A stretch of DNA of 64,000 bases from a virus, in IMG/VR virus record IMGVR_UViG_3300004097_003605, positions 610 through 64,609 of that record. One strand, 5' to 3'. Made by a program: the position numbers and the translations under genes. A model generated the notes under the pieces. The model ran no database searches. It was given only the letters and a program-made list of their open reading frames with translations, and was not told the DNA's origin. Positions 5,594 to 36,032 of this stretch are shown one piece after another. How positions within the stretch are numbered: the stretch's first letter is position 1; each line of letters starts with the position of its first letter.

Positions 5594-5639
5594 ATGCCTC
5601 CGTTTGAGAAATCGATCGCATCACACGATCTCGAAACCG

Positions 5640-5828
5640 TTAACCGTCGTGGTCACTGAGCACGGTTTCGGACGAAAGCTCAAGGCATGTCGTGTCGGAC
5701 GCGGGCGACTCCCGTTGTTCGAGGATCAACCGGCAACGCTGTCGCAGAATGACAGCAGAGAAGATCGCAGCCAGCTCGGTTCGACGTTCTTCCGACGTCA
5801 TCAGTACGGGGTCATCTGTCATGAGCAT
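5640..5828 (-). CDS. Small hypothetical protein, first gene of the recombinase operon
   Basis: 62 aa, AGGA RBS (true start may be 5822), co-oriented with the DUF2924 gene. Confidence 0.6.
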   Translation of the reverse strand: MLMTDDPVLMTSEERRTELAAIFSAVILRQRCRLILEQRESPASDTTCLELSSETVLSDHDG

Positions 5829-5916
5829 CCTGCTGTGAGTCTGGCGGCGCGCAGGGCGATCTCAGTTCAGCGATGCGGCAGCCAGCTCGGTTTCAGCGTT
5901 TATTCGTTCGCCCTGT

Positions 5917-8933: not shown

Positions 8934-9077
8934 ACGTGAAATCTCAAGACGGAAGTCTCAGCTGGGACACGCGTTGCGTCACCCGGCTGATTTTCTTTTC
9001 GCGTTTCGTGCCAGCCCCCCGGGGGCTGTCGTCGTGCACTGGGCACGACGGGAGTTCCACCCCGACGGAGTCACGAA

Positions 9078-9686
9078 ATGCTGCAGATCACTGACAATTC
9101 CACCGACCAACAAAGCCAGCCCCGCATTCCCGACAACTTCTCAACGTCGGTCGTTCGTCGCGCCGCCCGGCGCATGGTCGGGCGAGCCGGGTTCCAGTCC
9201 CATGACCGGGACGACATCGAACAGGAACTCTGGCTCAAGTTGCTACGCCATGCCGAGTCCTTTGACCCGAAGCGTGCCCACTGGCATGTCTTTGTGACGA
9301 CGGTCGTCAATCGCTACGCAGCGAACCTGCTGCGCGACCAGCGCGCTCTCAAACGCGACCGTGACCGGCTGGATTCGCTGCATGGCAAAGTGCGGGTCTC
9401 GGGCGAGGCACCGGTTGAACTCGGTGACTGTCTCGACACCACGGAAAAGAACCGCCATCGCGGACAGGTACCGCGTGATCAACTCGAGCAGGAATCGCTG
9501 GCCGTTGATGTCGCCTCACTGCTTGAAACGCTCAACCACGACGACCGCGACCTGGCCAGGCGATTGAGCGAAACGTCGATCTCTCAGGCGGCGCGCGAAT
9601 TGGGAGTCCCACGGACAACGCTCAATGACGCAGTTCGGCGACTGCGCCAGCGCTTCGAAGACGCAGCACTCCGAGACTGGCTTTGA
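9078..9686 (+). CDS. Phage-encoded sigma-70 family (ECF-like) sigma factor
   Basis: Region 2-like DDIEQELWLKLL...FVTTVVNRYAANLLR and region 4 HTH SISQAARELGVPRTTL; GGAG RBS. Confidence 0.85.
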   Translation: MLQITDNSTDQQSQPRIPDNFSTSVVRRAARRMVGRAGFQSHDRDDIEQELWLKLLRHAESFDPKRAHWHVFVTTVVNRYAANLLRDQRALKRDRDRLDSLHGKVRVSGEAPVELGDCLDTTEKNRHRGQVPRDQLEQESLAVDVASLLETLNHDDRDLARRLSETSISQAARELGVPRTTLNDAVRRLRQRFEDAALRDWL

Positions 9687-17648: not shown

Positions 17649-18025
17649 TCTACCTGGCCAGCCCTTACACGCATGCAGACGCCACGATTCGGGAAGAACG
17701 ATTTCGTGCGGTCTGTCGCGCGGCAGCCACGCTCATGCGACAGGGCCACGTTGTCTTCGCACCGATCGTTCATGGGCATCCGCTGGTGGCGGAAGGGCTG
17801 CCGATCGAATGGCCGTGGTGGGAGCGGTTCGATCGCGAGCATCTGTCGCGCTGCGACGAAGTTGTTGTGCTGATACTCGATAGCTGGGAAACGAGCACCG
17901 GCGTGCAGGCTGAGATCCGAATCGCGGAGGAACTCGGCAAGCCGGTGCGTTATCTGGCTCCGGTTGACACCGTCGCGCCCGGTTCGCCCGTGTTGGCGCG
18001 TGTGGCGATGGAGGGCGGGCTTTGA
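17645..18025 (+). CDS. DUF1937 family (nucleoside deoxyribosyltransferase-like fold)
   Basis: MIYLASPY...APIVHGH...STGVQAEI motifs. Confidence 0.85.
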   Translation: MIYLASPYTHADATIREERFRAVCRAAATLMRQGHVVFAPIVHGHPLVAEGLPIEWPWWERFDREHLSRCDEVVVLILDSWETSTGVQAEIRIAEELGKPVRYLAPVDTVAPGSPVLARVAMEGGL

Positions 18026-18102
18026 ACGTTCTACGGACCAACGAGAAAACGCCCCGACGTCGCGAACGTGGGGCGTCACGCGCTACGGAGCGCGTCGGGC
18101 GG

Positions 18103-18285
18103 TCAGTTGCCAGTCGCGTCGCTGGTGGGAACGGGCGTGTCGAGGCGGTCTGCGATCGCCAGCAGGGCCTCGACCAGATCCCAGGCATCAATGCGTGTGG
18201 AACGCCGGCCTTCATCCAGCGTTGTCTGCATGGCGGCGGTCACGTCGCGGATGGCGTCCGCCACTTCAGCTCGTGTTGTCGTCAT
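18103..18285 (-). CDS. Small hypothetical protein (60 aa)
   Basis: ATG 18285 with GGAG RBS, in the frame of ORF 18103..18420. Confidence 0.6.
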   Translation of the reverse strand: MTTTRAEVADAIRDVTAAMQTTLDEGRRSTRIDAWDLVEALLAIADRLDTPVPTSDATGN

Positions 18286-18445
18286 CGTATTCGTACTCCG
18301 CATCGGGTTCGTAAAGATGTCCGCAGCTCGCACAGCGGACGGTTTCGAAGTTGTCCTGCCAGACCAGGCGATCCGCGTCGCGTTCTCCGCAGCGCGGACA
18401 TTCGCAGCCGGGCGGGACATCGCTGGATCGTCGTTCGGCGATCAT
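18266..18445 (-). CDS. Small Zn-ribbon protein (59 aa, not in the ORF track)
   Basis: Manual translation MIAERRSSDVPPGCECPRCGERDADRLVWQDNFETVRCASCGHLYEPDAEYEYDDDNTS; AAGGAG RBS. Confidence 0.65.
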   Translation of the reverse strand: MIAERRSSDVPPGCECPRCGERDADRLVWQDNFETVRCASCGHLYEPDAEYEYDDDNTS

Positions 18446-18459
18446 GTTCGGCGTCTCCT

Positions 18460-18825
18460 TCAGGCGGTCTTCAGGGCGAAGCGGCCGCGATCGGTCTTCA
18501 CAAATCGGCTGTCGTCGCCCTTCGTTCTGATCTCGCGGATGATCGCGGCGTAAAGTGTGGCGTGAGGCGTTTTGCCACCGGGGCTCGTCCAGTAGCCTTT
18601 GGTCGCCATCGTCTCGATCATCTCCTTCGAAGCCATCGGTTCGGTCGCTTCGCCGAGCACCTTTGCCGCAGCGTCCAAGGCGCTGAGCCTCTTCGCGGAG
18701 CCGGCCTTCTTCGCCGACTGTTTCTTCGCAGCCGGTTTCGCGGCATCCGGCTTTGCCGTCGCGCTCTTGCGAGTCGTGGCCTTCCGCGTGGTCGCCTTCT
18801 TCATCGTGGTCTTACTTGCAGCCAT
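18460..18825 (-). CDS. Lys/Ala-rich N-tail + winged HTH (HARE-HTH-like) DNA-binding protein
   Basis: [18 protein letters not shown] repeats; [16 protein letters not shown]...[11 protein letters not shown]. Confidence 0.8.
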
Positions 18826-18854
18826 TCTTCGTTCCCCTTCGTAAAGTGGGTCCA

Positions 18855-18887
18855 GAAACAGAAAGAGCCGGCCAACGTGGCCGGCTC
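18855..18887 (-). terminator. Intrinsic terminator-like hairpin
   Basis: GAGCCGGCCA-CGT-TGGCCGGCTC 10-bp stem followed by TTTCTGTTTC on the minus strand, at the stop of the 86-aa gene. Confidence 0.6.
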
Positions 18888-19146
18888 AGGAGTCCGTCGT
18901 AGTTGCCCGGTCTTTCCGGGCGAGCATCTTGTGATGCCAGTTCCAGAGTTCGATCTCGTCCTCGGTCGCGGGTCGCACCGTGTGAATGACGATCGGATGG
19001 TTGCCGTACTTCTCGCGGAAATCGGCGTAGAGGTCCTCAAGCAGCGGCATGGCCATCTCGCGGGCGAGCGTTTCGTTGTCGGCGTCGACCAGCACGTACC
19101 GCGTGACCGTCGCGACCAGCCAGGTGGTTGTGTTTGCGTTCTTCAT
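18886..19146 (-). CDS. Hypothetical protein, 86 aa
   Basis: GGCTCCTGCG region with RBS-like AGGGCT upstream; part of the antisense small-gene cluster. Confidence 0.65.
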   Translation of the reverse strand: MKNANTTTWLVATVTRYVLVDADNETLAREMAMPLLEDLYADFREKYGNHPIVIHTVRPATEDEIELWNWHHKMLARKDRATTTDS

Positions 19147-19158
19147 CGCAGGAGCCCT

Positions 19159-19458
19159 TCAGTCGCGGGTGTTGAGGAAGCGGGTGATCGAGCGTCGCGT
19201 CCAGGCGGGCAGCGGGCCGCTGATCCAGCCGTCGTGCGTCATCGCGTCAGCGAGGTGGCGTCCGTCTCGGCTGTCGAGGAAGTCGCGGGCGTGCTCGCTG
19301 GTCAGCCCGAATGCGTGAATCAACTCGCAGCTCACGTCACCCCAGATCTCACGGGCGTCGGTGTCGCTGCAGCCGGTGTTCGAAAGCGTGGTCCCAAAGA
19401 AACCCCACGCTTCGTTCCGTGTGGCGAGGATCTCGGGCATGTCGTGTGTGGCGTTCAT
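19159..19458 (-). CDS. Hypothetical phage protein (RNEAWGFFGT motif)
   Basis: ATG 19458 with GGAG RBS, within ORF 19159..19512. Confidence 0.7.
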   Translation of the reverse strand: MNATHDMPEILATRNEAWGFFGTTLSNTGCSDTDAREIWGDVSCELIHAFGLTSEHARDFLDSRDGRHLADAMTHDGWISGPLPAWTRRSITRFLNTRD

Positions 19459-19574
19459 CGTACGCGTCTCCGTAGTTCGTGGTCCGTTCAACAACGAGAC
19501 ACATGGAGCCATGAGACGCGGACGAACTCCAGCGAGTTCGCGAATGATTCCAGCATCTTTTCAAAGGTTTCCTG

Positions 19575-19787
19575 ATGTCGTCAGATGACCACGATCGCAG
19601 CCTGAATCCGACAGCACTGGCGATCCCGGCTGCAGCCGCGCTGCTGTCGAAGGTCGGTGGGAAGCCCGTGCGCGAGGACACGCTGCGGGCGGACATCGAG
19701 GCCGGCGCTCCGACGAATGCGAATGGCACGATCAACCTGGTGATGTACGCCGCGTGGCTGGTAAAGGGACTCGGACGTGGCGATTGA
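19575..19787 (+). CDS. Small terminase-associated DNA-binding protein (terminase small subunit candidate)
   Basis: 70 aa; overlaps the terminase start; C-terminal INLVMYAAWLV resembles the terminase N-terminal VDLLRYVAWLV. Confidence 0.65.
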   Translation: MSSDDHDRSLNPTALAIPAAAALLSKVGGKPVREDTLRADIEAGAPTNANGTINLVMYAAWLVKGLGRGD

Positions 19788-22041
19788 TCCTCGCAAACTC
19801 AGACCGGGCGAACTGTGCCGGCTGTTGAACTCGACCCCGCTGGGCGAAGTCATCAGCGAACGCCAGCTTTACCGCCACCGTACGCGGGCAGGCTTTCGCG
19901 TGGGTGACGGCCGGCATGTCGACCTGCTGCGGTACGTCGCGTGGCTCGTCGATGTCTGTCACCGGCCAGAAGCGGAACCGGACGCCGATCCCTACAGCAC
20001 ACTCAAGGAGCGAGCTCGTGCCCGTAATGCCGCAATCGCGCAGGCCGGTCGAGACATTGGCGAACTGCCGGCGATCGGCAATTCCGATCGACGTCATCGG
20101 GCCGAACGCGATTTTCGATTTTTCTGCGAGGCCTACTTCCCGCTGACATTTCATCTGGCCTGGTCGCCGGACCATCTCAAGGTCATCGCGAAGATCGAAG
20201 AGGCAGTGCTTGAAGGCGGTCTGTTCGCGATGGCGATGCCGCGTGGCAGCGGCAAGACGACAATCTGTGAATGTGCCTGCATCTGGGCCGTGCTGAACGG
20301 CCACCGCGAGTTCGTCTGCCTCATCGGTTCGAACGAAGGCCACGCGATGGACATGCTGGATTCCATCAAGACGGAACTCGACGGCAACGAGCTGCTGCTG
20401 GCAGACTTCCCCGAGGTCGTCTTTCCGATCCAGTGTCTTGATGGCATCGCGAACCGATGCAGCGGCCAGCTTCACCAAGGTGAGCGAACTCACATCGGCT
20501 GGACGGCCCGCGAAGTTGTGCTGCCCACGATGCCGGGTTCGTTGGCCAGCGGAGCGATCATCAAAGTCGCAGGCATCACCGGTCGGATTCGTGGAATGAA
20601 GTTCAAGCGATCCGATGGTCAGACGGTGCGACCGTCACTGGTCGTGCTCGACGATCCACAAACCGACGAGTCGGCCCGCTCGCTGTCTCAGTGTGCGAAT
20701 CGTGAGAGCATTCTGGCCGGAGCGGTCCTTGGTCTCGCTGGGCCGGGGAAGAAGATCAGCGGCATCATGCCCTGCACGGTGATTCGGCCCGGCGACATGG
20801 CCGACAGCATTCTTGATCGCGATCGGCATCCCGAATGGAACGGCGAACGCACCCGCATGGTTTACTCGTTCCCTGACGACGAAAAGCTGTGGGCTCGTTA
20901 CGCGGAACTCCGCGCAGAAGGCATGCGGAGCGGCGACGGTGGCAAAGCAGCGACCGAATTCTACGCTCAACATCGGGAAGCGATGGACGTCGGTGCGAAG
21001 ATCGCGTGGCCGGAACGCCACAATCACGACGAGCTGTCAGCGATCCAGCACGCGATGAATCTCAAACTGCAGGACGAGGCTGCATTTTTCGCAGAGTATC
21101 AGAACGAACCGCTGCCGGAGGAAACCGTCGACGAGGACATGCTCACCGCTGACCAGATCGAGGCGAAGATCAACAACATCCAGCGCGCCGAGATTCCAAT
21201 CTCGTGCAACCACCTGACGATGTTCATCGACGTGCAGCAGAAACTGCTGTTCTTCTGCGTGTGCGCGTGGGAAGACGACTTCACCGGCTACGTCGTCGAC
21301 TACGGCTCTTTTCCTGACCAGAAGCGGACGTACTTCACGCTACGGGATGCGCGCCACACGCTGGCCAATGCGTCACCGGGCAGTGGCCTGGAAGGTTCGA
21401 TCTACGCGGGCCTCGAAGCACTGACGCAGCAGTACCTCAGCCAGGAGTGGAAACGGGACGATGGAGCGGCGTTGAAGATTGATCGCTGTCTGATCGATGC
21501 CAACTGGGGGCACTCGACTGATGTTGTCTACCAGTTCTGCCGGCAAAGCAGTCACTCGACGATTATCACGCCATCGCATGGACGCTTTGTCGGCGCGTCG
21601 AGCATTCCCTTTTCCGAGTACAAGCGAAAACAGGGCGATCGCGTCGGACTCAACTGGCGCATCCCCAACGTCCGAGGCAAGCGGGCCATTCGGCATGTCG
21701 TCTACGACACGAACTGGTGGAAGTCGTTCGTCCACGCGAGGCTGGCGGTTTCGATGGGCGACCGGGGCTGCCTGTCGGTGTTCGGTTCAAAGCCCGAAAC
21801 ACACCGACTGTTTGCCGAGCAGGTCACCGCCGAGTACTTCGTCAAAACAACCGGTCGCGGCCGAACAGTCGACGAATGGAAACTTCGCCCAGAGCAGTCC
21901 GACAACCACTGGCTGGACTGTCTCGTTGGAAGTGCTGTGGCAGCATCAATTCAGGGAGCGGTTTTGTTTGGCACCGACGTCGCGCCGGTGCTGCCACGTC
22001 GTCGTCTGAAGCTCTCTGAACTGCAGAGAGGGCGACGTTGA
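19777..22041 (+). CDS. Terminase large subunit (GpA-like)
   Basis: Walker A MPRGSGKTT, Walker B VVLDDPQ, nuclease motifs FIDVQ and DNHWLDC. Confidence 0.9.
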   Translation: MAIDPRKLRPGELCRLLNSTPLGEVISERQLYRHRTRAGFRVGDGRHVDLLRYVAWLVDVCHRPEAEPDADPYSTLKERARARNAAIAQAGRDIGELPAIGNSDRRHRAERDFRFFCEAYFPLTFHLAWSPDHLKVIAKIEEAVLEGGLFAMAMPRGSGKTTICECACIWAVLNGHREFVCLIGSNEGHAMDMLDSIKTELDGNELLLADFPEVVFPIQCLDGIANRCSGQLHQGERTHIGWTAREVVLPTMPGSLASGAIIKVAGITGRIRGMKFKRSDGQTVRPSLVVLDDPQTDESARSLSQCANRESILAGAVLGLAGPGKKISGIMPCTVIRPGDMADSILDRDRHPEWNGERTRMVYSFPDDEKLWARYAELRAEGMRSGDGGKAATEFYAQHREAMDVGAKIAWPERHNHDELSAIQHAMNLKLQDEAAFFAEYQNEPLPEETVDEDMLTADQIEAKINNIQRAEIPISCNHLTMFIDVQQKLLFFCVCAWEDDFTGYVVDYGSFPDQKRTYFTLRDARHTLANASPGSGLEGSIYAGLEALTQQYLSQEWKRDDGAALKIDRCLIDANWGHSTDVVYQFCRQSSHSTIITPSHGRFVGASSIPFSEYKRKQGDRVGLNWRIPNVRGKRAIRHVVYDTNWWKSFVHARLAVSMGDRGCLSVFGSKPETHRLFAEQVTAEYFVKTTGRGRTVDEWKLRPEQSDNHWLDCLVGSAVAASIQGAVLFGTDVAPVLPRRRLKLSELQRGRR

Positions 22042-23593: not shown

Positions 23594-25053
23594 TGCTGGC
23601 GTGGCTCAGAAACATTTCGCGATCGCGACTGACCAAGGCGTCACTTTCGGGCCGTTCTGGTCGGTTCTTTCGCAGCCGCTACGACGCGGCGGCGACCACG
23701 CCGGATAACCGCCGTCACTGGGCGAATGCGGACGGGCTGTCGGCGTTGGCCGCCAATAGTGCCGATGTGCGGCGGATTCTTCGTAACCGGTCCCGTTACG
23801 AAGTGGCGAACAACAGCTACGCCCGCGGGATTGTGCTGACGCTCGCCAATGACGTGATCGGGACCGGGCCGCGATTGCAGTTGTTGACGGGTGATGGTGA
23901 CGCCAACCGCCGCATCGAGCGGGAGTTTCAACGCTGGGCGCAGGCCGTTGACCTGGCGGGAAAACTCCGCACGCTGCGGATGGCTCAGACGACTGATGGC
24001 GAAGCGTTCGCCGTGCTGATCAACAATTCCGCTCTGCCCACGGGCATTCAGCTCGATCTGCAACTTATCGAAGCCGAGCAGGTTGCCACGCCAGAACCGC
24101 TCACCACAGCCGGCAGCAATGCCGTCGATGGCATCGTGCTGGATCGCAGCGGAAACGCGGTCGAGTACCACGTGCTGCGGACTCATCCGGGCGATGCGGT
24201 GGCTGTGCCTGGTGTGGAATACGACCGTGTGCCAGCAGCCAGCGTCATTCACCAGTTCCGCACCGACCGACCTGGGCAGCGTCGCGGTGTTCCAGAAATT
24301 ACTCCCGCTCTGCCGCTGTTTGCCATGCTGCGGGACTACTCACTGGCGACGCTGGATGCCGCCAAGGCCGCTGCTTACTTCGCCGGGATTCTCTACACTG
24401 ACGCTCCCGCCAACGGGGAAGCTGACGCGGTTGAGCCGCTGGATGAGATTCAGCTTGACCGCAATCTGCTGCTGACCATGCCCGGCGGCTGGAAGATGTC
24501 GCAACTGCATGCCGAGCATCCGTCAGGCACATACGCCGATTTCAAACGCGAACTGCTCAACGAAATCGCGCGGTGTCTCAACATGCCGTATAACGTCGCC
24601 GCGGCGAATTCGTCGGGCTACAACTACGCCTCCGGCCGGCTCGACCATCAGACTTACTTCAAGTCGATTCGGGTCGATCAGTCGCACCTTGAGTGCCGCG
24701 TACTGGACCGCATTCTCGCCGCATGGCTCGATGAAGCAGTGCTGATTCCCGGGCTGCTCACTGCTGGCCTGGGGCCGATCGCCGACTGGCCACACCAGTG
24801 GTTCTGGGACGGTCACGAGCACGTGGATCCCGCCAAAGAAGCAACGGCACAAGCCACGCGATTGAAGTCTCACACGACCACACTCGCGGATGAATACGCA
24901 CGCCGCGGTCAGGACTGGGAATCGCAGTTGCGGCAGCGGGCTGGCGAACTGCAACTCATGAAGGAACTCGGACTGGTGGACGTTCCGCCGGATGACAACG
25001 CCTCACAGGATGTCGAGGAAAACGATGCAGAATCTGTCCCCACAGCTGCCTGA
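23593..25053 (+). CDS. Portal protein, lambda family
   Basis: LRNRSRYEVANNSYARG, GQRRGVPE, NYASGRLD, HVDPAKEA motifs. Confidence 0.92.
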   Translation: MLAWLRNISRSRLTKASLSGRSGRFFRSRYDAAATTPDNRRHWANADGLSALAANSADVRRILRNRSRYEVANNSYARGIVLTLANDVIGTGPRLQLLTGDGDANRRIEREFQRWAQAVDLAGKLRTLRMAQTTDGEAFAVLINNSALPTGIQLDLQLIEAEQVATPEPLTTAGSNAVDGIVLDRSGNAVEYHVLRTHPGDAVAVPGVEYDRVPAASVIHQFRTDRPGQRRGVPEITPALPLFAMLRDYSLATLDAAKAAAYFAGILYTDAPANGEADAVEPLDEIQLDRNLLLTMPGGWKMSQLHAEHPSGTYADFKRELLNEIARCLNMPYNVAAANSSGYNYASGRLDHQTYFKSIRVDQSHLECRVLDRILAAWLDEAVLIPGLLTAGLGPIADWPHQWFWDGHEHVDPAKEATAQATRLKSHTTTLADEYARRGQDWESQLRQRAGELQLMKELGLVDVPPDDNASQDVEENDAESVPTAA

Positions 25054-27106
25054 CGGACAATCACTGCGGCTGCAGGCTGCGGAACTGGAGATCGAAGCGG
25101 CGACCGAGAACGAACCCGGCCGGCAGCGGCGATTTCGGATGGTCGCCTACACGGGCGGAGCCATGAAGCTCACCGGCTGGAAACACCCGGTGGTTGTGGA
25201 TCTCAACGGGATTGATGTCGGTCTCCAGCGTCGGCCGATCCTTCTCGATCACACCCGTGACGTGGACTGCGTCCTCGGTCAGACAGACCGCATCACGGTC
25301 GAAGACAGCCGGCTGCTGGTCAGCGGCGAAGTATTGGGAGACTCGGGCAAGGTGCAGCGAGTGATTGCACTGAGCGACCGTGGATTCGCGTGGCAGGCTT
25401 CGATCGGTGCCCGGGCCGACGATGTGGAATTCGTTCCGGCGGGAAGCACGGTCGAGGTTAACGGCCGAGAGGTCAGTGGTCCGGTCAACATTGCCCGACG
25501 GGCGTTGCTGGGTGAGGTCAGCTTCGTCGTGCTCGGAGCTGACGACCAGACTTCGGCCGAGATCGCCGCCACACTGGAAGCGGCGACGCAGGATGACAAC
25601 TCGATGCGGGCTGGTGCGGACTTCGCCAACTGGGTGACGGCTCAGGGATTCGATGCGGGAAACCTGAGCGAACGGCAGCAGCAGAGCCTGAGCGAACTCT
25701 TCGCGACACGCGGGGCACGCACGGAAGCGGACGCGGCCACGGACGTCAGTGACGACGGGAACCCCGTGGCTACCCTGCGTGCCGAGTTGGCCGCAGAAAC
25801 GCAGCGTGTCGGCCGCATTCGAAAGATCTGCAGCGGCAGGCATGCGGACATCGAAGCCCGAGCCATCGCGGAAGGATGGGACAATATGCAGACGGAACTC
25901 GAAGTGCTGCGGGCCACACGTCCGCAGGGACCGGCCATTCACTCACGTGATGCGTCGAGGCCTGATGCGGAAGCGATTGAGGCAGCGTTGTGCCTGTCGG
26001 CCAGTCTGCCCGAGCAGAAGTGCGGAAAACTGTTCAGCGAACGCGCGATGAACGCGGCACTCGGCCGGGACCTGCGTGGCATCGGACTGCACTACCTGAT
26101 GCACGCCGTGATCCGCGCAGCGGGCATGCACGTGCAGCCCGGGCTTGTGGATAACGACTTCATTCGCGCGGCGATGGCGGCGGACCGCAAGCTGACCGCG
26201 TCCGGCGGATTCTCGACGGTCTCACTGTCGGGCATCCTGTCGAACGTGGCCAACCGGACGATGCTGGCTTCGTTTGAAGCCGTCGACAACGTGCTCGGTC
26301 AGATTGCGGCGCAGGCGGATGCCAACGACTTCAAGCAGGTCACCAGTTACCGCCTGACGGGACTGGGTGAGTTCCAGAAGGTCGGGCCGGACGGCGAGCT
26401 GAAGCACGGGTCGCTCAGCGAAGAGACCTTCCAGAATCAGGTTGAGACCTACGGCACGCTGCTGTCGCTGACGCGGCAGATGATGATCAACGACGACCTG
26501 GGCGCATTCCTGCGTCTGCCACGTCTGATCGGACGCCAGTCCGCGATCAAGTTGCAGAAAGTCGGTTTCGGTCTTCTGCTGGCCAATGCCAACGCGTTTT
26601 TCAGTGCCGGCAATGGCAACTACTTCGCAGGCGCCGAAAGCAATCTGCAGATCAATTCGCTGACGACCGCCGAGCAGATGTTCTTCGACCAGAAGGACGA
26701 GAATGGTGATCCAGTCTCAATGACGCCGGGCGTACTGCTCGTTCCGACGTCGCTGAAGACGGTCGGCGATCAGCTCTACAACGATGTGGCCGTCAACGAA
26801 ACGACGACGGCCAACAAGCCGAAGCCCAACCGCAACCCGCACGCCGGCAAGTTCCGTCCGGTGGCGACACCGTGGCTCAACGCTCAGTCGCTGACGGGCA
26901 GCAGTGACACTGCGTGGTATCTGCTGGCCGATCCGGCTGACGCGGCGGTCCTCGAAATCATTTATCTGCGGGGCCGTCGTGTGCCTTACATCGAGAGCGA
27001 GGAATCCTCGTTCAACACATTGGGCATGCAGTGGCGAGGCTACTTCGACTTCGGCGTCGCTCTACAGGAGAAGCGGGCCGGTGTGAAGAGCAAAGGCGCG
27101 GCGTAA
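25025..27106 (+). CDS. Prohead protease-major capsid fusion (Mu gpT-like capsid C-terminus)
   Basis: N-terminal protease PILLDH...WQASIG...LGEVSFV; capsid NDFKQV...ETYGTLLSLTRQMMINDDLGAF...FDFG. Confidence 0.88.
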   Translation: MQNLSPQLPDGQSLRLQAAELEIEAATENEPGRQRRFRMVAYTGGAMKLTGWKHPVVVDLNGIDVGLQRRPILLDHTRDVDCVLGQTDRITVEDSRLLVSGEVLGDSGKVQRVIALSDRGFAWQASIGARADDVEFVPAGSTVEVNGREVSGPVNIARRALLGEVSFVVLGADDQTSAEIAATLEAATQDDNSMRAGADFANWVTAQGFDAGNLSERQQQSLSELFATRGARTEADAATDVSDDGNPVATLRAELAAETQRVGRIRKICSGRHADIEARAIAEGWDNMQTELEVLRATRPQGPAIHSRDASRPDAEAIEAALCLSASLPEQKCGKLFSERAMNAALGRDLRGIGLHYLMHAVIRAAGMHVQPGLVDNDFIRAAMAADRKLTASGGFSTVSLSGILSNVANRTMLASFEAVDNVLGQIAAQADANDFKQVTSYRLTGLGEFQKVGPDGELKHGSLSEETFQNQVETYGTLLSLTRQMMINDDLGAFLRLPRLIGRQSAIKLQKVGFGLLLANANAFFSAGNGNYFAGAESNLQINSLTTAEQMFFDQKDENGDPVSMTPGVLLVPTSLKTVGDQLYNDVAVNETTTANKPKPNRNPHAGKFRPVATPWLNAQSLTGSSDTAWYLLADPADAAVLEIIYLRGRRVPYIESEESSFNTLGMQWRGYFDFGVALQEKRAGVKSKGAA

Positions 27107-28843: not shown

Positions 28844-29116
28844 ATGGCCTGCAGCAATGGACAGACAACGCATCCGCACGGCAACGGCTTCATCGTCGTG
28901 CCGAAGTGGTTCGTGTCGTTCATCAGTTTCATGACGTCGGTCGTGTTCGTAGGAGCCGTCTTGTGGGCGTGGTCCATCTCGAACGACGTGAGCGCGATCA
29001 AGGCGGAACTCAAGATGACCAATGACATCCGGACGGCGGAACTTGATGCCGTGCGGAGACGGCTCGACCGGCACGATGTGCTGCTCGATCGACTGACGGA
29101 GCGACTCAAGCCATGA
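28844..29116 (+). CDS. Single-TM + coiled-coil membrane protein (holin-like candidate)
   Basis: Hydrophobic FVSFISFMTSVVFVGAVLWAWSI followed by a coiled coil. Confidence 0.6.
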   Translation: MACSNGQTTHPHGNGFIVVPKWFVSFISFMTSVVFVGAVLWAWSISNDVSAIKAELKMTNDIRTAELDAVRRRLDRHDVLLDRLTERLKP

Positions 29117-29754
29117 CGGCACCACTGATCAACATCGATGACTTTCAGCCGCTAGACCTGCTGGCGTGCTACGGCACGGACGCAGCGTCGAAGGCAATCT
29201 CGTGGGGCACGGCCTCGGTGCTGGCTCCGTCGCGATTGCGGCTGGGGCCATCGCACGTCGCGGTGATCTGCGAATACCACGACTCACCATTGTGGGTGGA
29301 GTCGACCACTCTGTGCCGCCATGCGTGTACTGTGCTGGGGTATCCGGTCTCGGGTTGTCAGTCGCATCAGCCGGAAGAACGGCTCAGTGATTACGTTGAG
29401 GCTGGCGGGCACGTGGATGTTTATCGGCTCACGGCGGTCGACCAGTTGTCGCAGAGTGAGTCGGAACTGCTGACGCGGATTCTCGTGAGGCATTTCATCG
29501 GAAAGCAGGTCACGTACGACTTCGGCGGAGCCCTGCTGTCGGGGACGCGGCTGTTTCGACACACGCGGCTGCTGCCCGGAGCGGATCTCAACGAACTGTT
29601 CTGCTCGGAACTGGCAGCCAAGGTGCTGATGCGGCTGGGCCGGCTGAATCGGGACAACCCGACGAAGTACAGCCCGGCCACGCTGTTTCGGAAGCTCGTC
29701 CGTCAGGGCACGGTGCAGTTCCAGACGCGGTACGAACAGGAGGCTGCGAAGTGA
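29113..29754 (+). CDS. Permuted papain-like amidase (YaeF/YiiX-type NlpC/P60)
   Basis: His motif GPSHVAVI precedes Cys motif LFCSEL; YDFGG. Confidence 0.75.
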   Translation: MTAPLINIDDFQPLDLLACYGTDAASKAISWGTASVLAPSRLRLGPSHVAVICEYHDSPLWVESTTLCRHACTVLGYPVSGCQSHQPEERLSDYVEAGGHVDVYRLTAVDQLSQSESELLTRILVRHFIGKQVTYDFGGALLSGTRLFRHTRLLPGADLNELFCSELAAKVLMRLGRLNRDNPTKYSPATLFRKLVRQGTVQFQTRYEQEAAK

Positions 29755-31034
29755 CACACCGATTTCTTTTCACGGCAGTGCTCCTGATGACCGCATCGGT
29801 CGCCCATGCGGACGAACGCGATGCCGTCGTCCGTGTGGACGGCTGCACGGGATTCATCGTCGCCGACAATCTGCTCGTGACCGCGAAGCACTGCCGCCAT
29901 CCCGCCCGTCTGAAAGTCAAAGTGCAGGGGAAGGACGTTTCCGCAAGTCGCGTCTACGTGTACCGCGGTGAAGACGGTCCGGCGGTGTTTCAACTCGACG
30001 GTGGGCCGTTTGCAAGTCTGCCGGTCGCGAGCCGTAAGCCGGAGATTGGTGAGCGTGTCTATTCGCTGGGTTATCCCGGCGGGAACTGGGCACGGATTGA
30101 AGGCGAAGTCAGCGGCGGCAACGGCGTTGATATCAACTACACCAACCATCGCATCGACAGTGGTAACAGTGGTGGCCCGCTGCTCAACGCAAGAGGTGAG
30201 GTCGTTGGAGTCGCTCTGCACGTTGCCGCCAATCCAGGAGTACACAGCTCCGGGTTCTCTGGCTGGCGAGTGACGACGGAGGCGATTCGCGCGGCACAGG
30301 GCGAAACGATCGAATTGCCGCAGCGCTACAGCCGACAACCGGTCGTCGTCGTGTTTTCCTCGACCAGTTGTTCGAGTTGCCGACAACTTGAGACCGACGT
30401 CGCGTCAGGCCAGTTCCGCGACTACCAGTTCCGATTCGTGAAGTGGGATCCGCAGATGCGGCAGTGGAGTGATCCGGAATTGTTCCGGGAATTCTCGAAC
30501 ACGTGCCGTCCGACAGAACAACTCGGCTTTCCCACGATCTGGGTAAAAAACACAAGTCAATACCGGGTCGGCTATTCGGCTGCCCGACGAGGCGGTCTGC
30601 TCGGCTGGCTTTCAAACGCCGTACGGTCACTGGTGGAAGCAATCATCGGGCACGAAGAACCACCGCCTTTTCCGACACCGAATGAGGTTCCGATTCCACC
30701 GGTCACTGATCCGGCACCGGTCCCCGGACCACCATCCGAAGAAGCGGCACCCGACACTGCACTCCTGCGGCTGGCACGTGACCTTGCTGCTCTGCGTGAC
30801 GAGGCGAGGGAGACACGCAGCGACTTCAACGAATTCCGCGAGTCCGGGGTCATCGGAAAGATTCGGGCCATCGCCAGGTTGCGCGAAGATAAGGACGACG
30901 CACTGGAAGCGGTCAACGCCGTTCGGGCTGATGTGGATGCAGTCCGCGACGACTTTCGGGAACGACCACTGCAGTTTCTGTGGGGGCTGTTTGGAACCAT
31001 CACCGGGCTGCTTCATCGGAGGTTTGCTCACTGA
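29751..31034 (+). CDS. Secreted trypsin-like serine protease + thioredoxin-like domain + C-terminal amphipathic tail
   Basis: Signal peptide (..ASVAHA); VTAKHC; DSGNSGGP; CSSC with FPTIW; Pro-rich linker. Confidence 0.85.
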   Translation: MTHRFLFTAVLLMTASVAHADERDAVVRVDGCTGFIVADNLLVTAKHCRHPARLKVKVQGKDVSASRVYVYRGEDGPAVFQLDGGPFASLPVASRKPEIGERVYSLGYPGGNWARIEGEVSGGNGVDINYTNHRIDSGNSGGPLLNARGEVVGVALHVAANPGVHSSGFSGWRVTTEAIRAAQGETIELPQRYSRQPVVVVFSSTSCSSCRQLETDVASGQFRDYQFRFVKWDPQMRQWSDPELFREFSNTCRPTEQLGFPTIWVKNTSQYRVGYSAARRGGLLGWLSNAVRSLVEAIIGHEEPPPFPTPNEVPIPPVTDPAPVPGPPSEEAAPDTALLRLARDLAALRDEARETRSDFNEFRESGVIGKIRAIARLREDKDDALEAVNAVRADVDAVRDDFRERPLQFLWGLFGTITGLLHRRFAH

Positions 31035-31294
31035 TGGGAACGATTGCAGGCATCATCGCGACAGCAGCCCTGTCGCATCTGGGCGGAGCGACGCTGGGTG
31101 GCGTGCTCGCGAAGTTCGGCGTGCTGGGCTTCGGGAAGAAGCTGACGGTCGCACGGCACATCCTCAAAGTTGGAAAAGCACTCAGGCAACGGCTGGACCG
31201 CGACCGCAATGAAGAGGCTCGCAAGGACCTCAAAGCCTGGCTGAAGAATCACGATCCGGACAACGAGTCCGGCCTCGGTAACGGCATCACCTGA
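31034..31294 (+). CDS. Small hydrophobic protein (membrane/holin-like candidate)
   Basis: Gly/Ala/Leu-rich hydrophobic N-half, basic C-half. Confidence 0.6.
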   Translation: MGTIAGIIATAALSHLGGATLGGVLAKFGVLGFGKKLTVARHILKVGKALRQRLDRDRNEEARKDLKAWLKNHDPDNESGLGNGIT

Positions 31295-31311: not shown

Positions 31312-31746
31312 ATGAAACTCGGCATGGAAGCAAAGCTGTACCGCAACACGGGCTCGTTCGGAGCACCGACGTGGGTCGAGATGACCAACGTCAAAGACCT
31401 GACGCTGAATCTCGAAGCCTCCGAAGCGGACGTCACTACGCGTGGCAACGCCGGCTGGCGAGCGACGATTGCGGCGTTGAAGGATGGTTCGATCGAGTTC
31501 GAGATGGTGTGGGATCCGGCGGACGCCGGTTTCACCGCCATTCAGGATGCGTACTTCAACAACACGACGCTGGAGTTCGGTGTGATGGATGGCGACATCA
31601 CGTCCAGCGGCACGCAGGGACTGCGAGCCACGATGTCGATCACCAAGCTCACTCGCAGCGAACCACTCGAACAGGCCATCACGGTCAGTGTCACCGCGAA
31701 GCCAACGTACTCGGCGAACGCGCCCGACTGGATGACGGTGCCGTAA
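31312..31746 (+). CDS. Tail tube protein
   Basis: NVKDLTLNLEASEADVTTRGNAGWR...GSIEFEM motif; located before chaperones and tape measure. Confidence 0.85.
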   Translation: MKLGMEAKLYRNTGSFGAPTWVEMTNVKDLTLNLEASEADVTTRGNAGWRATIAALKDGSIEFEMVWDPADAGFTAIQDAYFNNTTLEFGVMDGDITSSGTQGLRATMSITKLTRSEPLEQAITVSVTAKPTYSANAPDWMTVP

Positions 31747-32530: not shown

Positions 32531-34570
32531 ATGGCCAGTGCATCCGGAATCCGCGCTGGACGGGCTTTTGTCGAGTTGTTCGCGGATGACTCAAAGCTCG
32601 TTCGCGGTCTGAACGCTGCCCGCAAACGATTACAGGCGTTCGGTTCGTCGGCGCGGGCCATCGGCACGCGATTATTGACTGCCGGGTCTCTTGTGGCCGC
32701 TCCGCTGTCGTTCGCGGTGAAGGCCGGCAGCGACATGGAAGAGACGATGAACAAGTTCAATGTCGTCTTTGGTCAGAACGCACCGGCGGTGAAAGATTGG
32801 AGCGATCAGTTTGCCGGACAGATGGGACGCTCGAAAAAGCAGGTGGCCGACTTTCTTGCCGGGACTCAGGACCTGCTGGTTCCGATCGGTTTTGACGATG
32901 ACAGTGCGACCACGATGAGCCAGCAGCTGACCGGCCTGGCGATCGACCTGGCGTCTTTCAACAACATGTCGGATTCGGATGTGCTGCGCGACCTGCACGC
33001 GGCACTGACAGGATCGAGCGAGGTCATGAAAAAGTATGGCGTGATCGTCAACGAGACCGCCGTCAAACAGGAGATGCTCAATCAGGGTGTCGACCCCAGT
33101 CACGCCACCGAGCAGCAGAAGGTGATGTCGCGGCTGGCGATCATCATGCGCGGGACGACTGCGGCGCAGGGCGATGCCGAACGCTCGGCCGGTTCGTTCG
33201 CGAATCAGATGAAAGCGCTGCAGGCGAAGGTCGAGGACGCGGCGGTTGAGATCGGGTCGGCTTTGCTGCCGGTCGTCACGCCGCTGGTCACTGCGCTGGC
33301 CGACGCCGTGAAGATGGTCAGCGCGTGGATCAAAGAGAATCGCGGGCTGGTCATTGTGCTGGCGAAGATCGCTGCTGCTGCGGTCGCTGCCGGACTGGCG
33401 TTCATCCTGATCGGCACTGTGGTCTCGGGATTCGGGGCGACGCTGGGAGCACTCGCGTCCGTGCTCACCGGCATCGGAAGTGCGTTCAGCCTCGTGGGGT
33501 CAGCGATTGCCGCACTGATGTCGCCGATCGGACTGGTGATCGCCGGCGTCGGAGTACTCGCGGCTTACCTCATCACCTCGACGGATGCCGGCGGGCAGGC
33601 TCTGGCATGGCTGGGCGACAAGTTCGCAGTCCTCAAAGACGAGGCGCTCGCCGCGTGGAGCGGTATCAGTGACGCACTTGCGGCGGGAGATATCGGGCTG
33701 GCCGCACGCATTTTGTGGTTGACGCTCAAGTTACAGTGGCAGAAGGGCGTCGCCGCTCTTAACCGCATCTGGGCCAGCGTGAAGAACACGTTTCTCACGA
33801 CTTGGACGGAAGCGGTCTTCAGTACAGCTGCGATCGCCACGGAAGGCTGGGCCGGGCTGCAGTCCGCGTGGACGGAGACGATCGACTTCCTCGCCGATGC
33901 GTGGTCGATCTTCACGACCGGCCTGACGAAGACGTGGAACACGGCCGTCGGGTTCATTCGTACGGCGTGGATCAAACTGAAGTCGCTGTTCGACGACGAG
34001 GTAGATGTCGACGCCGAAGTCGTCCGCATCACGGAAGAAACAACTTCGGCGAATGCCTCGGAAGACCGGTCGCGCGACGAACGTATCTTCCAGCGTGAGC
34101 GGCAGCGTCGAGAGCGACTGAGTGAGATCGAACAGCAGAGCTCCGGCACGCTGGAAGAACTCGAACGCGAACGGGTCAGTGAACAGGACCGCCACTCGGA
34201 GCAGTTCCGTTCCGACGTTCGGCAGTCGGAAGACTCGCTTTCTCAGGCGCGTCGAGAGTGGCAGCAGGCGACCGAACAGGCGGCCGAGGCTCGTCGCCAG
34301 TCGGAGTCCGAAGCTGACGACGGTCCCGCGAAGGCAAAGTCGCCAGGCGATCTGATTCAGCAGTTGCAGCAGCAACTCAACGGAGCGGGCGAGCAACTGC
34401 AGGAGACGCAGGATCGCATCAGCGTTACGGGAACTTTCAACGCCGCCGCTGTGCGTGGTCTGGGCGGTGGAGCCCCCGAGGAACGAACGGCCAAAGCCAC
34501 GGAAGAAACCGCGAAGAACACCCGCCGCATTCTGGATGAGGCCCGTCAGAACGGGCTTGTTTTTGGTTGA
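32531..34570 (+). CDS. Tape measure protein
   Basis: 679 aa, Ala-rich helical protein with hydrophobic middle; follows the chaperones. Confidence 0.9.
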   Translation: MASASGIRAGRAFVELFADDSKLVRGLNAARKRLQAFGSSARAIGTRLLTAGSLVAAPLSFAVKAGSDMEETMNKFNVVFGQNAPAVKDWSDQFAGQMGRSKKQVADFLAGTQDLLVPIGFDDDSATTMSQQLTGLAIDLASFNNMSDSDVLRDLHAALTGSSEVMKKYGVIVNETAVKQEMLNQGVDPSHATEQQKVMSRLAIIMRGTTAAQGDAERSAGSFANQMKALQAKVEDAAVEIGSALLPVVTPLVTALADAVKMVSAWIKENRGLVIVLAKIAAAAVAAGLAFILIGTVVSGFGATLGALASVLTGIGSAFSLVGSAIAALMSPIGLVIAGVGVLAAYLITSTDAGGQALAWLGDKFAVLKDEALAAWSGISDALAAGDIGLAARILWLTLKLQWQKGVAALNRIWASVKNTFLTTWTEAVFSTAAIATEGWAGLQSAWTETIDFLADAWSIFTTGLTKTWNTAVGFIRTAWIKLKSLFDDEVDVDAEVVRITEETTSANASEDRSRDERIFQRERQRRERLSEIEQQSSGTLEELERERVSEQDRHSEQFRSDVRQSEDSLSQARREWQQATEQAAEARRQSESEADDGPAKAKSPGDLIQQLQQQLNGAGEQLQETQDRISVTGTFNAAAVRGLGGGAPEERTAKATEETAKNTRRILDEARQNGLVFG

Positions 34571-34598
34571 GGAATCATGAGGACACCGGTCACACGAA

Positions 34599-35393
34599 AT
34601 GCCTGTCACGGTTCACGAGAAATGGGACAGCCGCGAAACGACGATCAGCGAAGACTCGACCGTCGATCTGCGGTTCGTGATTCGCGGCACGAACGACGAC
34701 GCGGCGGCCAACTCGGCGCTGCTGTCGGCGTCGCCCGTGCTGTATGGCGGGCTTGTGCGCCAGAGTCTTCATACCGAGCGGATCGCCGAGTACGAGTGGG
34801 AAGGCTCGGTCCGTTACGGCCGGTTCGAACCGCCTCAGACCGGCGACAGTTCCTTCTCGTTCGACACGGGTGGCGGCTCACAACACATCACACAGTCGCT
34901 GGCCACGGTTGGAGCGTGGTCAGTCGATGGGCCGCCTCCCGACTTTCGCGGCGCGATCGGAGTCACACGCGACAGTGTCGACGGCGTGGACATCACGGTC
35001 CCGGTCTACAACTTCAGCGAGACGCACTACATCAGTGTGGGCTTCGTGACCGCTGCCTACAAGGCGGCTCTCTTCTACCTCACCGGTCAGGTCAACAACG
35101 CGCCGTTCCGCGGGTTCGCTTCCGGCGAAGTGCTCTTCCTCGGCGCGTCCGGTTCGAGGCGAGGCCCCGACGACTGGGAGATCACGTACCGCTTCGCCGC
35201 CAGTCCCAACGTCGCCGGACTGGCCGTTGGCGACATGACAGGCATCGGCAAACGCGGCTGGGAGTATCTCTGGGTGCGGTATGAGGATGTCGAAGACACG
35301 GCGGCGATGGCACTCGTCAAGCGGCCGGTCGCGTCTTACGTCGAACAGGTTTATCCGTATGGCAACTTCGCGGGACTTGGCATTGGAGCGTGA
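34599..35393 (+). CDS. Tail tip/distal tail protein
   Basis: Directly after the tape measure; beta-rich, 264 aa. Confidence 0.65.
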   Translation: MPVTVHEKWDSRETTISEDSTVDLRFVIRGTNDDAAANSALLSASPVLYGGLVRQSLHTERIAEYEWEGSVRYGRFEPPQTGDSSFSFDTGGGSQHITQSLATVGAWSVDGPPPDFRGAIGVTRDSVDGVDITVPVYNFSETHYISVGFVTAAYKAALFYLTGQVNNAPFRGFASGEVLFLGASGSRRGPDDWEITYRFAASPNVAGLAVGDMTGIGKRGWEYLWVRYEDVEDTAAMALVKRPVASYVEQVYPYGNFAGLGIGA

Positions 35394-35396
35394 CGT

Positions 35397-36032
35397 GTGG
35401 GAGATGCCTTCCGAAAAGTCCGGACCGGCGACGCCCTGCGAATTCCGGCTGAGACGTTCAACACGTTCATTGATGCCGCGCGCGATTTCAAAACGCGGCA
35501 ACGTTCACTGGCCCGGCAGGTTGAATCCGAATTCTCGCAGGCAGGCATCATCCCGGTCCGTAATGACTCGGGCGAGGACCGCAGTCGGTTCGACGTGCTG
35601 GGCATCTGCGGTCCGGTGTTTCCGCCAGCGGTCAGCCTCACGTCGTTCCAGAACCGCGTCGCGCTCGCCGGAACGACGCCGTGTGAGGTCGCCCACCTCG
35701 GACGGTTCGTCGTGCTGCTCGAACCGGTCCGTGCCGGACGGATCGGCATGGCCTGTGTCAGTGGCGTCTGTGTGGCAAAGGTTACGGTTGAGGATCCCAC
35801 GCATGAATTTGCAGACGTTGAGGACGGCAACCCGGAGAACCTGAAGTCAGCCGAATCCGGTTCCGCGTTTCTGCTGTGGACCGACGACCCCGGCGGTGAT
35901 GGAGATGGCTACGACGGCGGATACGGCTACTGCGGTTACGGATACACGGGCGGCTATGGCTACGGCGGACCGGTGTGGGCGGTCATTCGGATTGGCAACA
36001 TTTGTCCGGGGCAGCAGTGGGGTGCGGTGTAA
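35397..36032 (+). CDS. Tail tip protein with Gly/Tyr-rich loop
   Basis: 211 aa; GGDGDGYDGGYGYCGYGYTGGYGYGG near the C-terminus. Confidence 0.65.
   Translation: MGDAFRKVRTGDALRIPAETFNTFIDAARDFKTRQRSLARQVESEFSQAGIIPVRNDSGEDRSRFDVLGICGPVFPPAVSLTSFQNRVALAGTTPCEVAHLGRFVVLLEPVRAGRIGMACVSGVCVAKVTVEDPTHEFADVEDGNPENLKSAESGSAFLLWTDDPGGDGDGYDGGYGYCGYGYTGGYGYGGPVWAVIRIGNICPGQQWGAV

Follow-up and report, generated by a model that had tools for sequence, protein, structure and literature searches.

In lambdoid phages, the slot just upstream of the large terminase gene is the classical place of the lysis cassette, and in mycobacteriophages the mycolylarabinogalactan esterase LysB acts as an accessory lysis enzyme. 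To our knowledge, every tailed phage studied breaks peptidoglycan for host exit, and no phage protein that joins an S1 protease to a CxxC thioredoxin-like domain has been described before. The hydrolases of the permuted NlpC/P60 group display a Cys/His triad, a conserved Tyr and a hydrophobic S1 pocket, in which a fatty acid was found bound in the case of YiiX (PMC3142127), and the members Tox-Act1 and TseH of this group are phospholipases of type VI secretion systems that act in the periplasm (PMC12994826). We report here on four genes, A to D, located at positions 28844-31294 of a window of 64 kb (the whole stretch of DNA that was analysed, IMG/VR record IMGVR_UViG_3300004097_003605), which represents a temperate siphovirus-type prophage within a record of 71.6 kb. 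The hosts of this phage are marine Planctomycete bacteria. On balance, we lean towards the reading of A-D as a lysis or egress cassette of the phage. It is best filed as a lysis-cassette variant centred on gene B, which belongs to a hitherto undescribed family of permuted NlpC/P60 enzymes of phages, the protease-thioredoxin encoded by gene C being an optional extra in a clade of Planctomycete phages. The four open reading frames (ORFs) were found on the plus strand between the neck and tail-tube genes, where a preliminary description of the window had placed them, and the flanking genes are also as described there:

28844-29116, plus strand: gene A, 90 amino acids, membrane protein
29113-29754, plus strand: gene B, 213 amino acids, putative permuted NlpC/P60 hydrolase
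29751-31034, plus strand: gene C, 427 amino acids, GTG start, putative exported protease-thioredoxin
31034-31294, plus strand: gene D, 86 amino acids, small Gly/Ala-rich protein

Within the cassette the stop and start codons overlap (ATGA between A and B, GTGA between B and C, TGATG between C and D). Only 3 nucleotides separate A from the upstream tail-completion gene Tc, and 17 nucleotides separate the end of D from the ATG of the tail-tube gene at 31312. The GC content of A-D is uniform with that of the neighbouring genes, and no promoter-like or terminator-like site was found within A-D or at their borders in the region scanned (27.0-32.6 kb). The gene overlaps, the absence of an own promoter or terminator and the matching GC content thus indicate late-operon genes, and the reading of A-D as a moron (inserted cargo) was rejected on the overlaps and on the absence of internal or border promoters and terminators. 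As judged from this arrangement, the four genes are probably translationally coupled and part of the late head-tail operon.

Gene B encodes, according to its sequence profile and its structural model, a predicted circularly permuted NlpC/P60 Cys hydrolase of the YaeF/YiiX-like type, as the preliminary description had proposed. The family profile (80 homologues) matches the PDB structures 3kw0 (E 4e-5) and 2if6 (E 1.5e-4). The AlphaFold2 (AF2) model of B, with a predicted local distance difference test (pLDDT) of 90.3, recovers the same two structures with Foldseek (E 6e-5 for 3kw0 and 1e-3 for 2if6; probability 1.0, TM-score 0.53-0.62), no other fold being better than E 0.1, and the identity with these solved structures is merely 14-18%. 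The residues His48, Glu63, Tyr135 and Cys164 vary little or not at all among homologues; Tyr135 and Glu63 are invariant in one alignment (A3) and at least 90% conserved in another (A2). They are encoded at the following positions:

29254-29256, plus strand: His48 of B
29299-29301, plus strand: Glu63 of B
29515-29517, plus strand: Tyr135 of B
29602-29604, plus strand: Cys164 of B

His48 (in the motif PSHVA) and Cys164 (in FCSEL) are aligned with SHTGI and ICSEF of 3kw0. The catalytic His precedes the catalytic Cys, itself near the C-terminus, as in a circularly permuted enzyme, and sequence conservation reveals the extra Tyr and the polar third residue of the triad that characterize YaeF/YiiX-like enzymes. 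By its Cys and His residues and its conserved Tyr, B thus fits the YaeF/YiiX-like group as defined previously (PMC3142127). No Pfam family matches B at E<=1, and even at this threshold PF05708 (Peptidase_C92) has no match in the five related records, so that B represents a separate family or a remote sister rather than a member of Pfam C92. This family comprises 442 cluster representatives (50% identity) at E<=0.001. With tblastn, neither B nor C found a counterpart among 50,697 phage records of GenBank. Homologues of B are, however, encoded in the genomes of three isolates, Thalassoglobus polymorphus (P0013), Maioricimonas rarisocia Mal4 (P0112) and Planctomicrobium sp. SH661 (P0084).

The protein B has no signal peptide and no secretion or delivery domain. 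By analogy with the characterized enzymes of the group, a hydrophobic acyl pocket is expected in B. The preliminary description had proposed that host exit involves the cutting of lipoprotein anchors; membrane phospholipids would be at least as likely a target, since the characterized permuted NlpC/P60 enzymes Tox-Act1 and TseH are phospholipases (PMC12994826), which favours a lipid target over a role as lipoprotein amidase.

A link to lysis comes from the homologues of B in other lineages. A profile-guided scan with an alignment of 20 B sequences has recovered 38 viral loci. In nine of them (L040-L044, L046, L048, L050 and L051), B is located about 3-4 kb upstream of terL among runs of proteins with a signal peptide or a transmembrane (TM) helix, and the cluster of L040 includes a trypsin-like protease. 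Three lineages of unrelated low-GC phages are more informative. Two of them (L055 and L059, GC 31-37%) display the order coiled-coil/TM protein, Peptidase_M15_4 endolysin, B. Their endolysins match phrog_465 with E values of 1.9e-33 and 1.4e-28, respectively, and that of L055, the only one scanned against Pfam, matches PF13539 (3.6e-7). At L057, the third of these lineages, the order is coiled-coil/TM protein, 141-residue protein, B. The B proteins of L055, L057 and L059 match the family hidden Markov model with E values from 1e-27 to 1e-32 and keep the motifs SH, ES, YD and FCSE. A small bitopic coiled-coil membrane protein is also encoded directly upstream of B at L024 and L040. Read from this gene order, the B-family enzymes are recurrent members of lysis cassettes, in the position that spanins or LysB occupy after the endolysin. 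The neighbourhood with an M15 endolysin at L055 and L059 indicates that B is accessory there and not a substitute for the endolysin. The B family thus appears to be a widespread accessory lysis enzyme, previously undescribed and without a Pfam family.

Two proteins of these loci deserve a separate mention. The pre-terminase cluster of L048 that contains B, from an unrelated phage, encodes (8962-9393) a protein of 144 amino acids in which a Thioredoxin domain (Pfam E 1e-7, CQPC) lies between a lipobox-like signal (LLMASC) and a C-terminal TM helix; its predicted architecture is that of a unimolecular spanin with two membrane anchors and a thioredoxin core. At L057, the protein of 141 amino acids (5478-5900) belongs to phrog_1501, of unassigned function, and sits where L055 and L059 have the M15 endolysin; its motif HHGN...GCI is, by eye, reminiscent of YkuD-type LD-peptidases.

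Concerning a classical lysin, the scans of about 40 window ORFs against PHROGs and Pfam gave no endolysin, holin or spanin family. Ten endolysin families of Pfam (Phage_lysozyme, Amidase_2, SLT, GH108, Peptidase_M15_4, GH25, GH19, Amidase_3, CHAP and NLPC_P60) were then searched in six frames in five records (G000-G004), i.e. the 71.6-kb record of the window and four relatives, of which G003 and G004 are 97% and 100% complete according to CheckV. None of the ten families was matched in any of the five records, and the positive control Trypsin_2 was matched in all five by the same procedure; the negatives for GH108 and GH19 are weaker, as a control of 14 genomes also gave no match for either. 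No PHROG spanin was matched, the DUF2570 match of A is below the cut-off, and inspection of the listed ORFs by eye, without a formal search, revealed no ORF with a lipobox in the cassette or overlying it. These results bear out the preliminary description, in which no lysozyme, Amidase_2, CHAP or spanin gene had been recognized and an endolysin search of all phage ORFs had been proposed. A truncated prophage as the cause of the missing endolysin is largely rejected, because all ten families are equally missing from the relatives with an estimated completeness of 97% and 100%. A lysis cassette before the terminase was rejected as well: the plus-strand ORFs with apparent TM helices at 18.6-19.3 kb are antisense shadows of minus-strand genes (a K/A/T-rich helix-turn-helix protein and others). 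A literature search on lysis by Planctomycete phages found nothing specific.

Each of the 13 IMG/VR relatives recovered with B retains the genes A-B-C between Tc and the tail-tube gene. The gene C exists in two forms, on one hand a short C followed by D, in the subclade of the window, and on the other hand a long C of about 500 amino acids, in most relatives. After its CGPC thioredoxin, the long C is predicted to continue with a TM helix of the Gly-zipper type and an Arg cluster, and to end in a cytoplasmic tail (about 70 residues) that is conserved; it is followed by a strongly conserved protein of 264 amino acids and sometimes by a homologue of staphylococcal nuclease. Two loci depart from this arrangement. 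L025 contains only A (68% identical), B and the tail-tube gene, with no protease, and L023, from an AT-rich phage, contains a staphylococcal nuclease-like gene, B, a long C and the 264-residue protein in another context and without A. These arrangements indicate a mobile and variable module with two overlapping sets, A+B and B+C+X264 (the 264-residue protein). A-D does not form a constant unit. Of the lysis module put forward in the preliminary description, the link to lysis is therefore sustained by the homologues of B beside an M15 endolysin or upstream of terL, and the unity of the four genes is not (L025; restriction of D to one subclade).

Several observations were made on these accessory genes. 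In the B homologue of L025 (530-1174), a Ser replaces the catalytic Cys (FSTS versus FCSE) and the His and Glu are kept; from its sequence, this protein may be a pseudo-enzyme or an enzyme with a Ser nucleophile. The 264-residue protein (L011:12166-12957; also in L008, L009, L012-L015, L023 and L042-L044) has a size of 262-275 amino acids and is absent from the window. Its identity is 53-62% across phages that differ strongly in other respects (33% in L043), and no relative was found in Pfam, PHROGs or the Atlas. The small staphylococcal nuclease homologue (PF00565, E 1e-7) is encoded beside the cassette at L009:7196-7534, L012:12512-12853, L013:4199-4546 and L044:8526-9008; at L023, the nuclease-like gene lies immediately upstream of B.

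Gene C is predicted, by sequence and model, to encode an S1 (Trypsin_2) protease fused to a CxxC thioredoxin-like domain, in line with the signal-peptide protease with a thioredoxin fold of the preliminary description. Its parts, all on the plus strand, are as follows:

29751-29810, plus strand: signal peptide, residues 1-20, with a cleavage site AHA/DE read by eye
29826-30296, plus strand: S1 protease domain, residues about 26-182, with His47, Asp75 and Ser140
30333-30647, plus strand: thioredoxin-like domain, residues about 195-299, with Cys207-Ser-Ser-Cys210 and cis-Pro261
30648-30755, plus strand: Pro-rich disordered linker, residues 300-335
30759-30962, plus strand: two long helices (coiled coil), residues 337-404
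30966-31028, plus strand: conserved hydrophobic C-terminal helix, residues 406-426, followed by RRF

The protease domain matches Trypsin_2 of Pfam with an E value of 2e-16 (61.5 bits, cut-off 27.6), and Foldseek places it closest to Spl, MarP (Rv3671c) and DegS/HtrA (E about 1e-10). The triad His47, Asp75 and Ser140 is invariant in 18 homologues, as are the pair Cys32/Cys48 and the residues Cys207, Cys210 and Pro261. In the AF2 model, the second domain displays the order strand 198-204, helix 208-218, strand 226-233, helix 242-252, strand 262-265, strand 271-273 and helix 277-299, i.e. the beta-alpha-beta-alpha-beta-beta-alpha succession of a thioredoxin fold, with the CxxC motif at the start of helix 1 and a cis-Pro loop. 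The consensus of the CxxC dipeptide is x-P, and the sequence CGPC of many relatives resembles that of reducing thioredoxins. The signal peptide is predicted to be cleavable and of the non-lipoprotein type, and no PDZ domain is present. The protein C is thus predicted to be exported and anchored in the inner membrane by its C-terminal helix, with a periplasmic stalk. A search of genome contigs with C gave only an unrelated protease of Oscillospiraceae.

Gene A encodes, as previously described, a protein with a single strong TM helix (KD17 2.23), which is the only strong one of the phage besides that of the tape measure. The protein is organized in two parts:

28907-28975, plus strand: TM helix, residues about 22-44, preceded by a short N-terminal segment
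28976-29113, plus strand: charged coiled coil containing the invariant motif RRRLxRHD

The helix is almost invariant across 14 homologues (Trp22, Phe23, Val24, Ser25, Phe26, Ser28, Phe29 and Ser32 among others) and carries a stripe of Ser residues (Ser25, Ser28 and Ser32), which suggests helix-helix packing or the lining of a pore. The sole family match of A is a weak one, to DUF2570 (E 0.014, 15.8 bits, under the cut-off of 26.6), and its Atlas neighbours are unnamed phage clusters with no named relatives. Small, with a TM helix and a charged C-terminal tail, and encoded beside a putative lytic enzyme, A has the sequence features of a holin and is a candidate holin-like protein or membrane partner of B. 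The prediction of an A+B complex, run without controls, gave a score of 0.00, which counts neither for nor against an interaction.

Gene D is found only in the short-C subclade and is absent from the long-C relatives. Its start ATG overlaps the stop of C, and the frame can also be opened further upstream, from a GTG at 30980. Two parts can be recognized:

31034-31132, plus strand: N-terminal 33 residues, Gly/Ala-rich and weakly hydrophobic
31133-31291, plus strand: basic C-terminal tail, net charge +5

The identity of D is 85-88% in close relatives; in one further relative it is 61%, against 58% for C. The preliminary description of D as a hydrophobic protein of 86 amino acids is retained in part, the protein being moderately hydrophobic (KD17 1.39) and a TM helix uncertain. 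These sequence features make D a candidate pinholin or protein of the antiholin type, an assignment weaker than those of A, B and C. The idea that D is a split-off piece of the long-C tail was rejected, the local alignment being not significant (z = 2.4).

If A-D is a lysis or egress cassette, the following sequence of events can be proposed. In late infection, C would be exported via Sec, as its signal peptide, its invariant Cys32/Cys48 pair and its CxxC thioredoxin-like domain suggest; its C-terminal helix would tether it to the cytoplasmic membrane, the head being held in the periplasm on the coiled-coil and Pro-rich stalk. The protein A, perhaps with D, would build up in the membrane until a timed permeabilisation of the holin type. 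The signal-less B would then get through the lesion to the membranes and the periplasm and hydrolyse phospholipid or lipoprotein acyl linkages, acting as an outer-membrane disruptor analogous to a spanin or LysB. Finally, the head of C would reduce and cleave the Cys-rich protein wall and the tethers of the Planctomycete envelope.

The envelope of the hosts gives some substance to this last step. In Planctopirus limnophila, the genes of peptidoglycan synthesis are mostly dispensable (PMC10632474), and Cys-rich YTV wall proteins are confined to the class Planctomycetia, one YTV-domain protein being among the essential genes (PMC10632474, PMC12673574). The protein-rich envelope invoked in the preliminary description is consistent with these data, with the qualification that Planctomycetes do contain peptidoglycan (PMC12673574). 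A stronger version of the lysis reading is that lysis is truly endolysin-free, one whole family of tailed phages on Planctomycetaceae having no muralytic enzyme, the Cys-rich YTV-type layer being dismantled by the tethered protease-thioredoxin and the membranes by a holin-released B of the phospholipase type; we hold this version to be doubtful. If true, it would represent the first lysis system by which a tailed phage leaves a walled diderm independently of peptidoglycan, and would provide independent genetic testimony that the load in Planctomycete cells is carried by protein rather than by murein. A phage family without a recognisable muralytic enzyme, equipped with an exported protease-thioredoxin and a Cys hydrolase of lipid type in its place, would show lysis adapting to an atypical envelope and would bear on the long debate over the source of Planctomycete cell strength.

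A number of points weigh against a lysis or egress cassette. Lysis genes are usually more variable than A and B are here: in the relatives, A is 61-93% and B 63-92% identical, which is comparable to the terminase and the tail tube, and the capsid protein, with an identity of 40-52% in every relative but one, is less conserved. A place between the neck and the tail tube is not usual for lysis genes. Neither A nor D matches a holin family in Pfam or PHROGs; D matches no family at all in these databases, has no named Atlas relative and is weakly hydrophobic. In the window copy of C, the match to Thioredoxin_2 (3e-4, 21.4 bits) is under the cut-off of 27; in the long-C relative L011, Thioredoxin_2 (33.4 bits) and Thioredoxin (25.2 bits) are both over their cut-offs. 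A periplasmic reductase would need an electron source, and none is evident. The absence of a protease at L025 indicates that C is dispensable or optional, and the Ser in place of the Cys in the B of this locus that B is perhaps not always catalytic. The absence of lysins concerns ten Pfam families, so that a muralytic enzyme of another, unrecognised fold could hide among the unannotated ORFs or in the 264-residue protein of the relatives. The 'YiiX-like amidase' of the Bacillus phage Izhevsk is found among tail genes (PMC7685451), and phage enzymes of the YiiX kind are therefore not always lysis genes. Finally, the role proposed for the cassette is a computational prediction.

Among the other explanations, the one that survives best, unlikely as we judge it, is that A-D is accessory only and that a peptidoglycan hydrolase is still used, either a phage enzyme of unrecognised fold or host autolysins after depolarisation; A-D would merely add a disruption of the outer layer like spanins or LysB, and lysis would not be endolysin-free. 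The coexistence of B with an M15 endolysin at L055 and L059, where B is thus not muralytic, agrees with this explanation, as do the many window ORFs without a family (g407, g315, g251, t264 and t211), the 264-residue protein of no known family conserved within the cassette of the relatives and the presence of peptidoglycan in Planctomycetes (PMC12673574). It is opposed by the absence of the ten endolysin families and the PHROG lysis families in the window and of the ten Pfam families in the four relatives; moreover, the dispensable peptidoglycan-synthesis genes of P. limnophila (PMC10632474) suggest that peptidoglycan cleavage may not be limiting.

A role in virion morphogenesis or entry, in which B would be tail-associated or would process neck or tail proteins and A would be an assembly factor, seems to us very unlikely. 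Tailed-phage virions assemble in the cytoplasm, and the TM helix of A and the Sec signal, Cys pair and CxxC motif of C point to the membrane and the periplasm. In other lineages B is encoded away from the structural genes, upstream of terL or behind an endolysin, and no PHROG structural family matches A, B, C or D. What speaks for such a role is the constant location of the genes next to the start of the major tail protein gene in every relative from Planctomycete phages, including L025 with A and B only, a conservation level equal to that of structural genes, and the place of the Izhevsk 'YiiX-like amidase' between the tape measure and a tail endopeptidase (PMC7685451).

Late envelope remodelling or superinfection exclusion (C destroying or unfolding the surface receptor of the phage and B altering lipids, which would spare progeny from being lost on debris or on cells already infected), or a pair A/B of the toxin-immunity type, is the least probable explanation: C is predicted to be exported and membrane-tethered and belongs to the DegS/MarP/Spl structural class, and toxins of the Tox-Act1 type have adjacent genes for membrane-associated immunity proteins (PMC12994826), but A-D has no promoter or terminator of its own and is coupled to virion genes, hence would not be expressed in the lysogen where exclusion would be useful, a domain for secretion or delivery is missing from B, and the company that B keeps in other phages (holin-like proteins and endolysins) speaks for lysis.

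The record of the window is estimated to be about 78% complete, and it has a minimal tail tip. Around A-D, the following features were found, in gene order:

3504-5096, minus strand: serine integrase
after the integrase: CI-like repressor and extracytoplasmic function (ECF)-type sigma factor
after the repressor/sigma block: Sak4, SSB, RusA, helicase and primase-polymerase, then ParB-methyltransferase
19777-22041: large terminase
3' of the terminase: portal, then protease-capsid fusion at 24992-27106
last neck gene ending at 28840: decoration protein and three neck genes
upstream of the cassette: head-tail joining protein (PF25138, E 1e-47)
directly upstream of A: tail-completion/Neck1-like gene (Tc), with its stop TAA at 28840
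31312-31746, directly downstream of D: major tail protein (tail tube)
after the major tail protein: chaperones, then tape measure at 32531-34570
after the tape measure: two small tail-tip genes and a block of glycosyl/methyl-transferases

Some of these regions required a choice between overlapping frames. After the tape measure (34577-36032), the conserved frames of the overlapping ORF pairs are 34599-35393 (264 amino acids) and 35397-36032 (211 amino acids), with 92% and 89% identity in relatives versus 74% and 78% for the alternative frames; neither product has a Pfam match. No large tail fibre is encoded after 36032 in the window, where relatives encode proteins of 855-1083 amino acids. The plus-strand ORF of 517 amino acids at 18022-19575 is very probably spurious, the true genes being on the minus strand and encoding a Zn-ribbon-like protein (59 amino acids), a K/A/T-rich helix-turn-helix protein (121 amino acids) and proteins of 86 and 117 amino acids. 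In the relative G004 (L020:5693-9604), a protein of 1304 amino acids with a SIR2_2 domain (E 3e-22) is encoded between the terminase and the ParB-methyltransferase; it is possibly a phage-borne defence or counter-defence gene.

Compared with the known systems, A-D shares with the S-R-Rz/Rz1 cassette of lambda the tight, late association of small membrane protein(s), a signal-less enzyme and a periplasm-spanning component, and in other lineages the B module occupies the same slot just before the terminase genes. Contrary to the lambda type, A-D has no recognised muralytic enzyme, no match to a holin or spanin family and no lipobox o-spanin, is located between the neck and tail-tube genes, and combines a Cys hydrolase of lipid type with a spanning protein that carries a protease and a thioredoxin. 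The XhlA-XhlB-XlyA system of the Bacillus prophage PBSX also has a small bitopic coiled-coil membrane protein ahead of its lytic enzymes. The same layout, with the TM helix at the C-terminus behind a coiled coil, is found in the protein upstream of B at L040 and in that upstream of the 141-residue gene at L057, and the protein upstream of the endolysin at L059 matches 'hemolysin' PHROGs (phrog_937, E 6.5e-5), which we take to be XhlA-like. The protein A differs from XhlA by the reversed order (TM helix, then coiled coil) and by the absence of an XhlA family match.

An inner-membrane anchor and a stalk that spans the periplasm are predicted for C, which in this resembles gp11, the unimolecular spanin of phage T1. 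C differs from gp11 by its catalytic domains and by the lack of an outer-membrane anchor, as its signal peptide is cleavable and of the non-lipoprotein type. DegS and MarP/Rv3671c of Mycobacterium tuberculosis are, as predicted for C, membrane-anchored periplasmic S1 proteases, C being devoid of a PDZ domain. The core of B, with the His before the Cys and a conserved Tyr, is that of the YaeF/YiiX-like enzymes (BcPPNE 3kw0, YiiX 2if6) and of Tox-Act1/TseH; it is distinguished from them by its escape from PF05708, by its own large phage-borne family and by the absence of a delivery domain. Finally, a functional parallel of B would be LysB. LysB is a cutinase-like alpha/beta-hydrolase with a Ser nucleophile, whereas B is a putative permuted papain-like NlpC/P60 enzyme with a Cys nucleophile and an activity that is only predicted, and the two are unrelated in sequence and fold. 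Both would nevertheless be second, lipid-directed hydrolases for an unusual outer layer beyond the reach of an endolysin, and B follows the endolysin at L055 and L059 as LysB follows LysA, so that the B family is a candidate third-step (outer-membrane) lysis factor beside spanins, disruptin and LysB.

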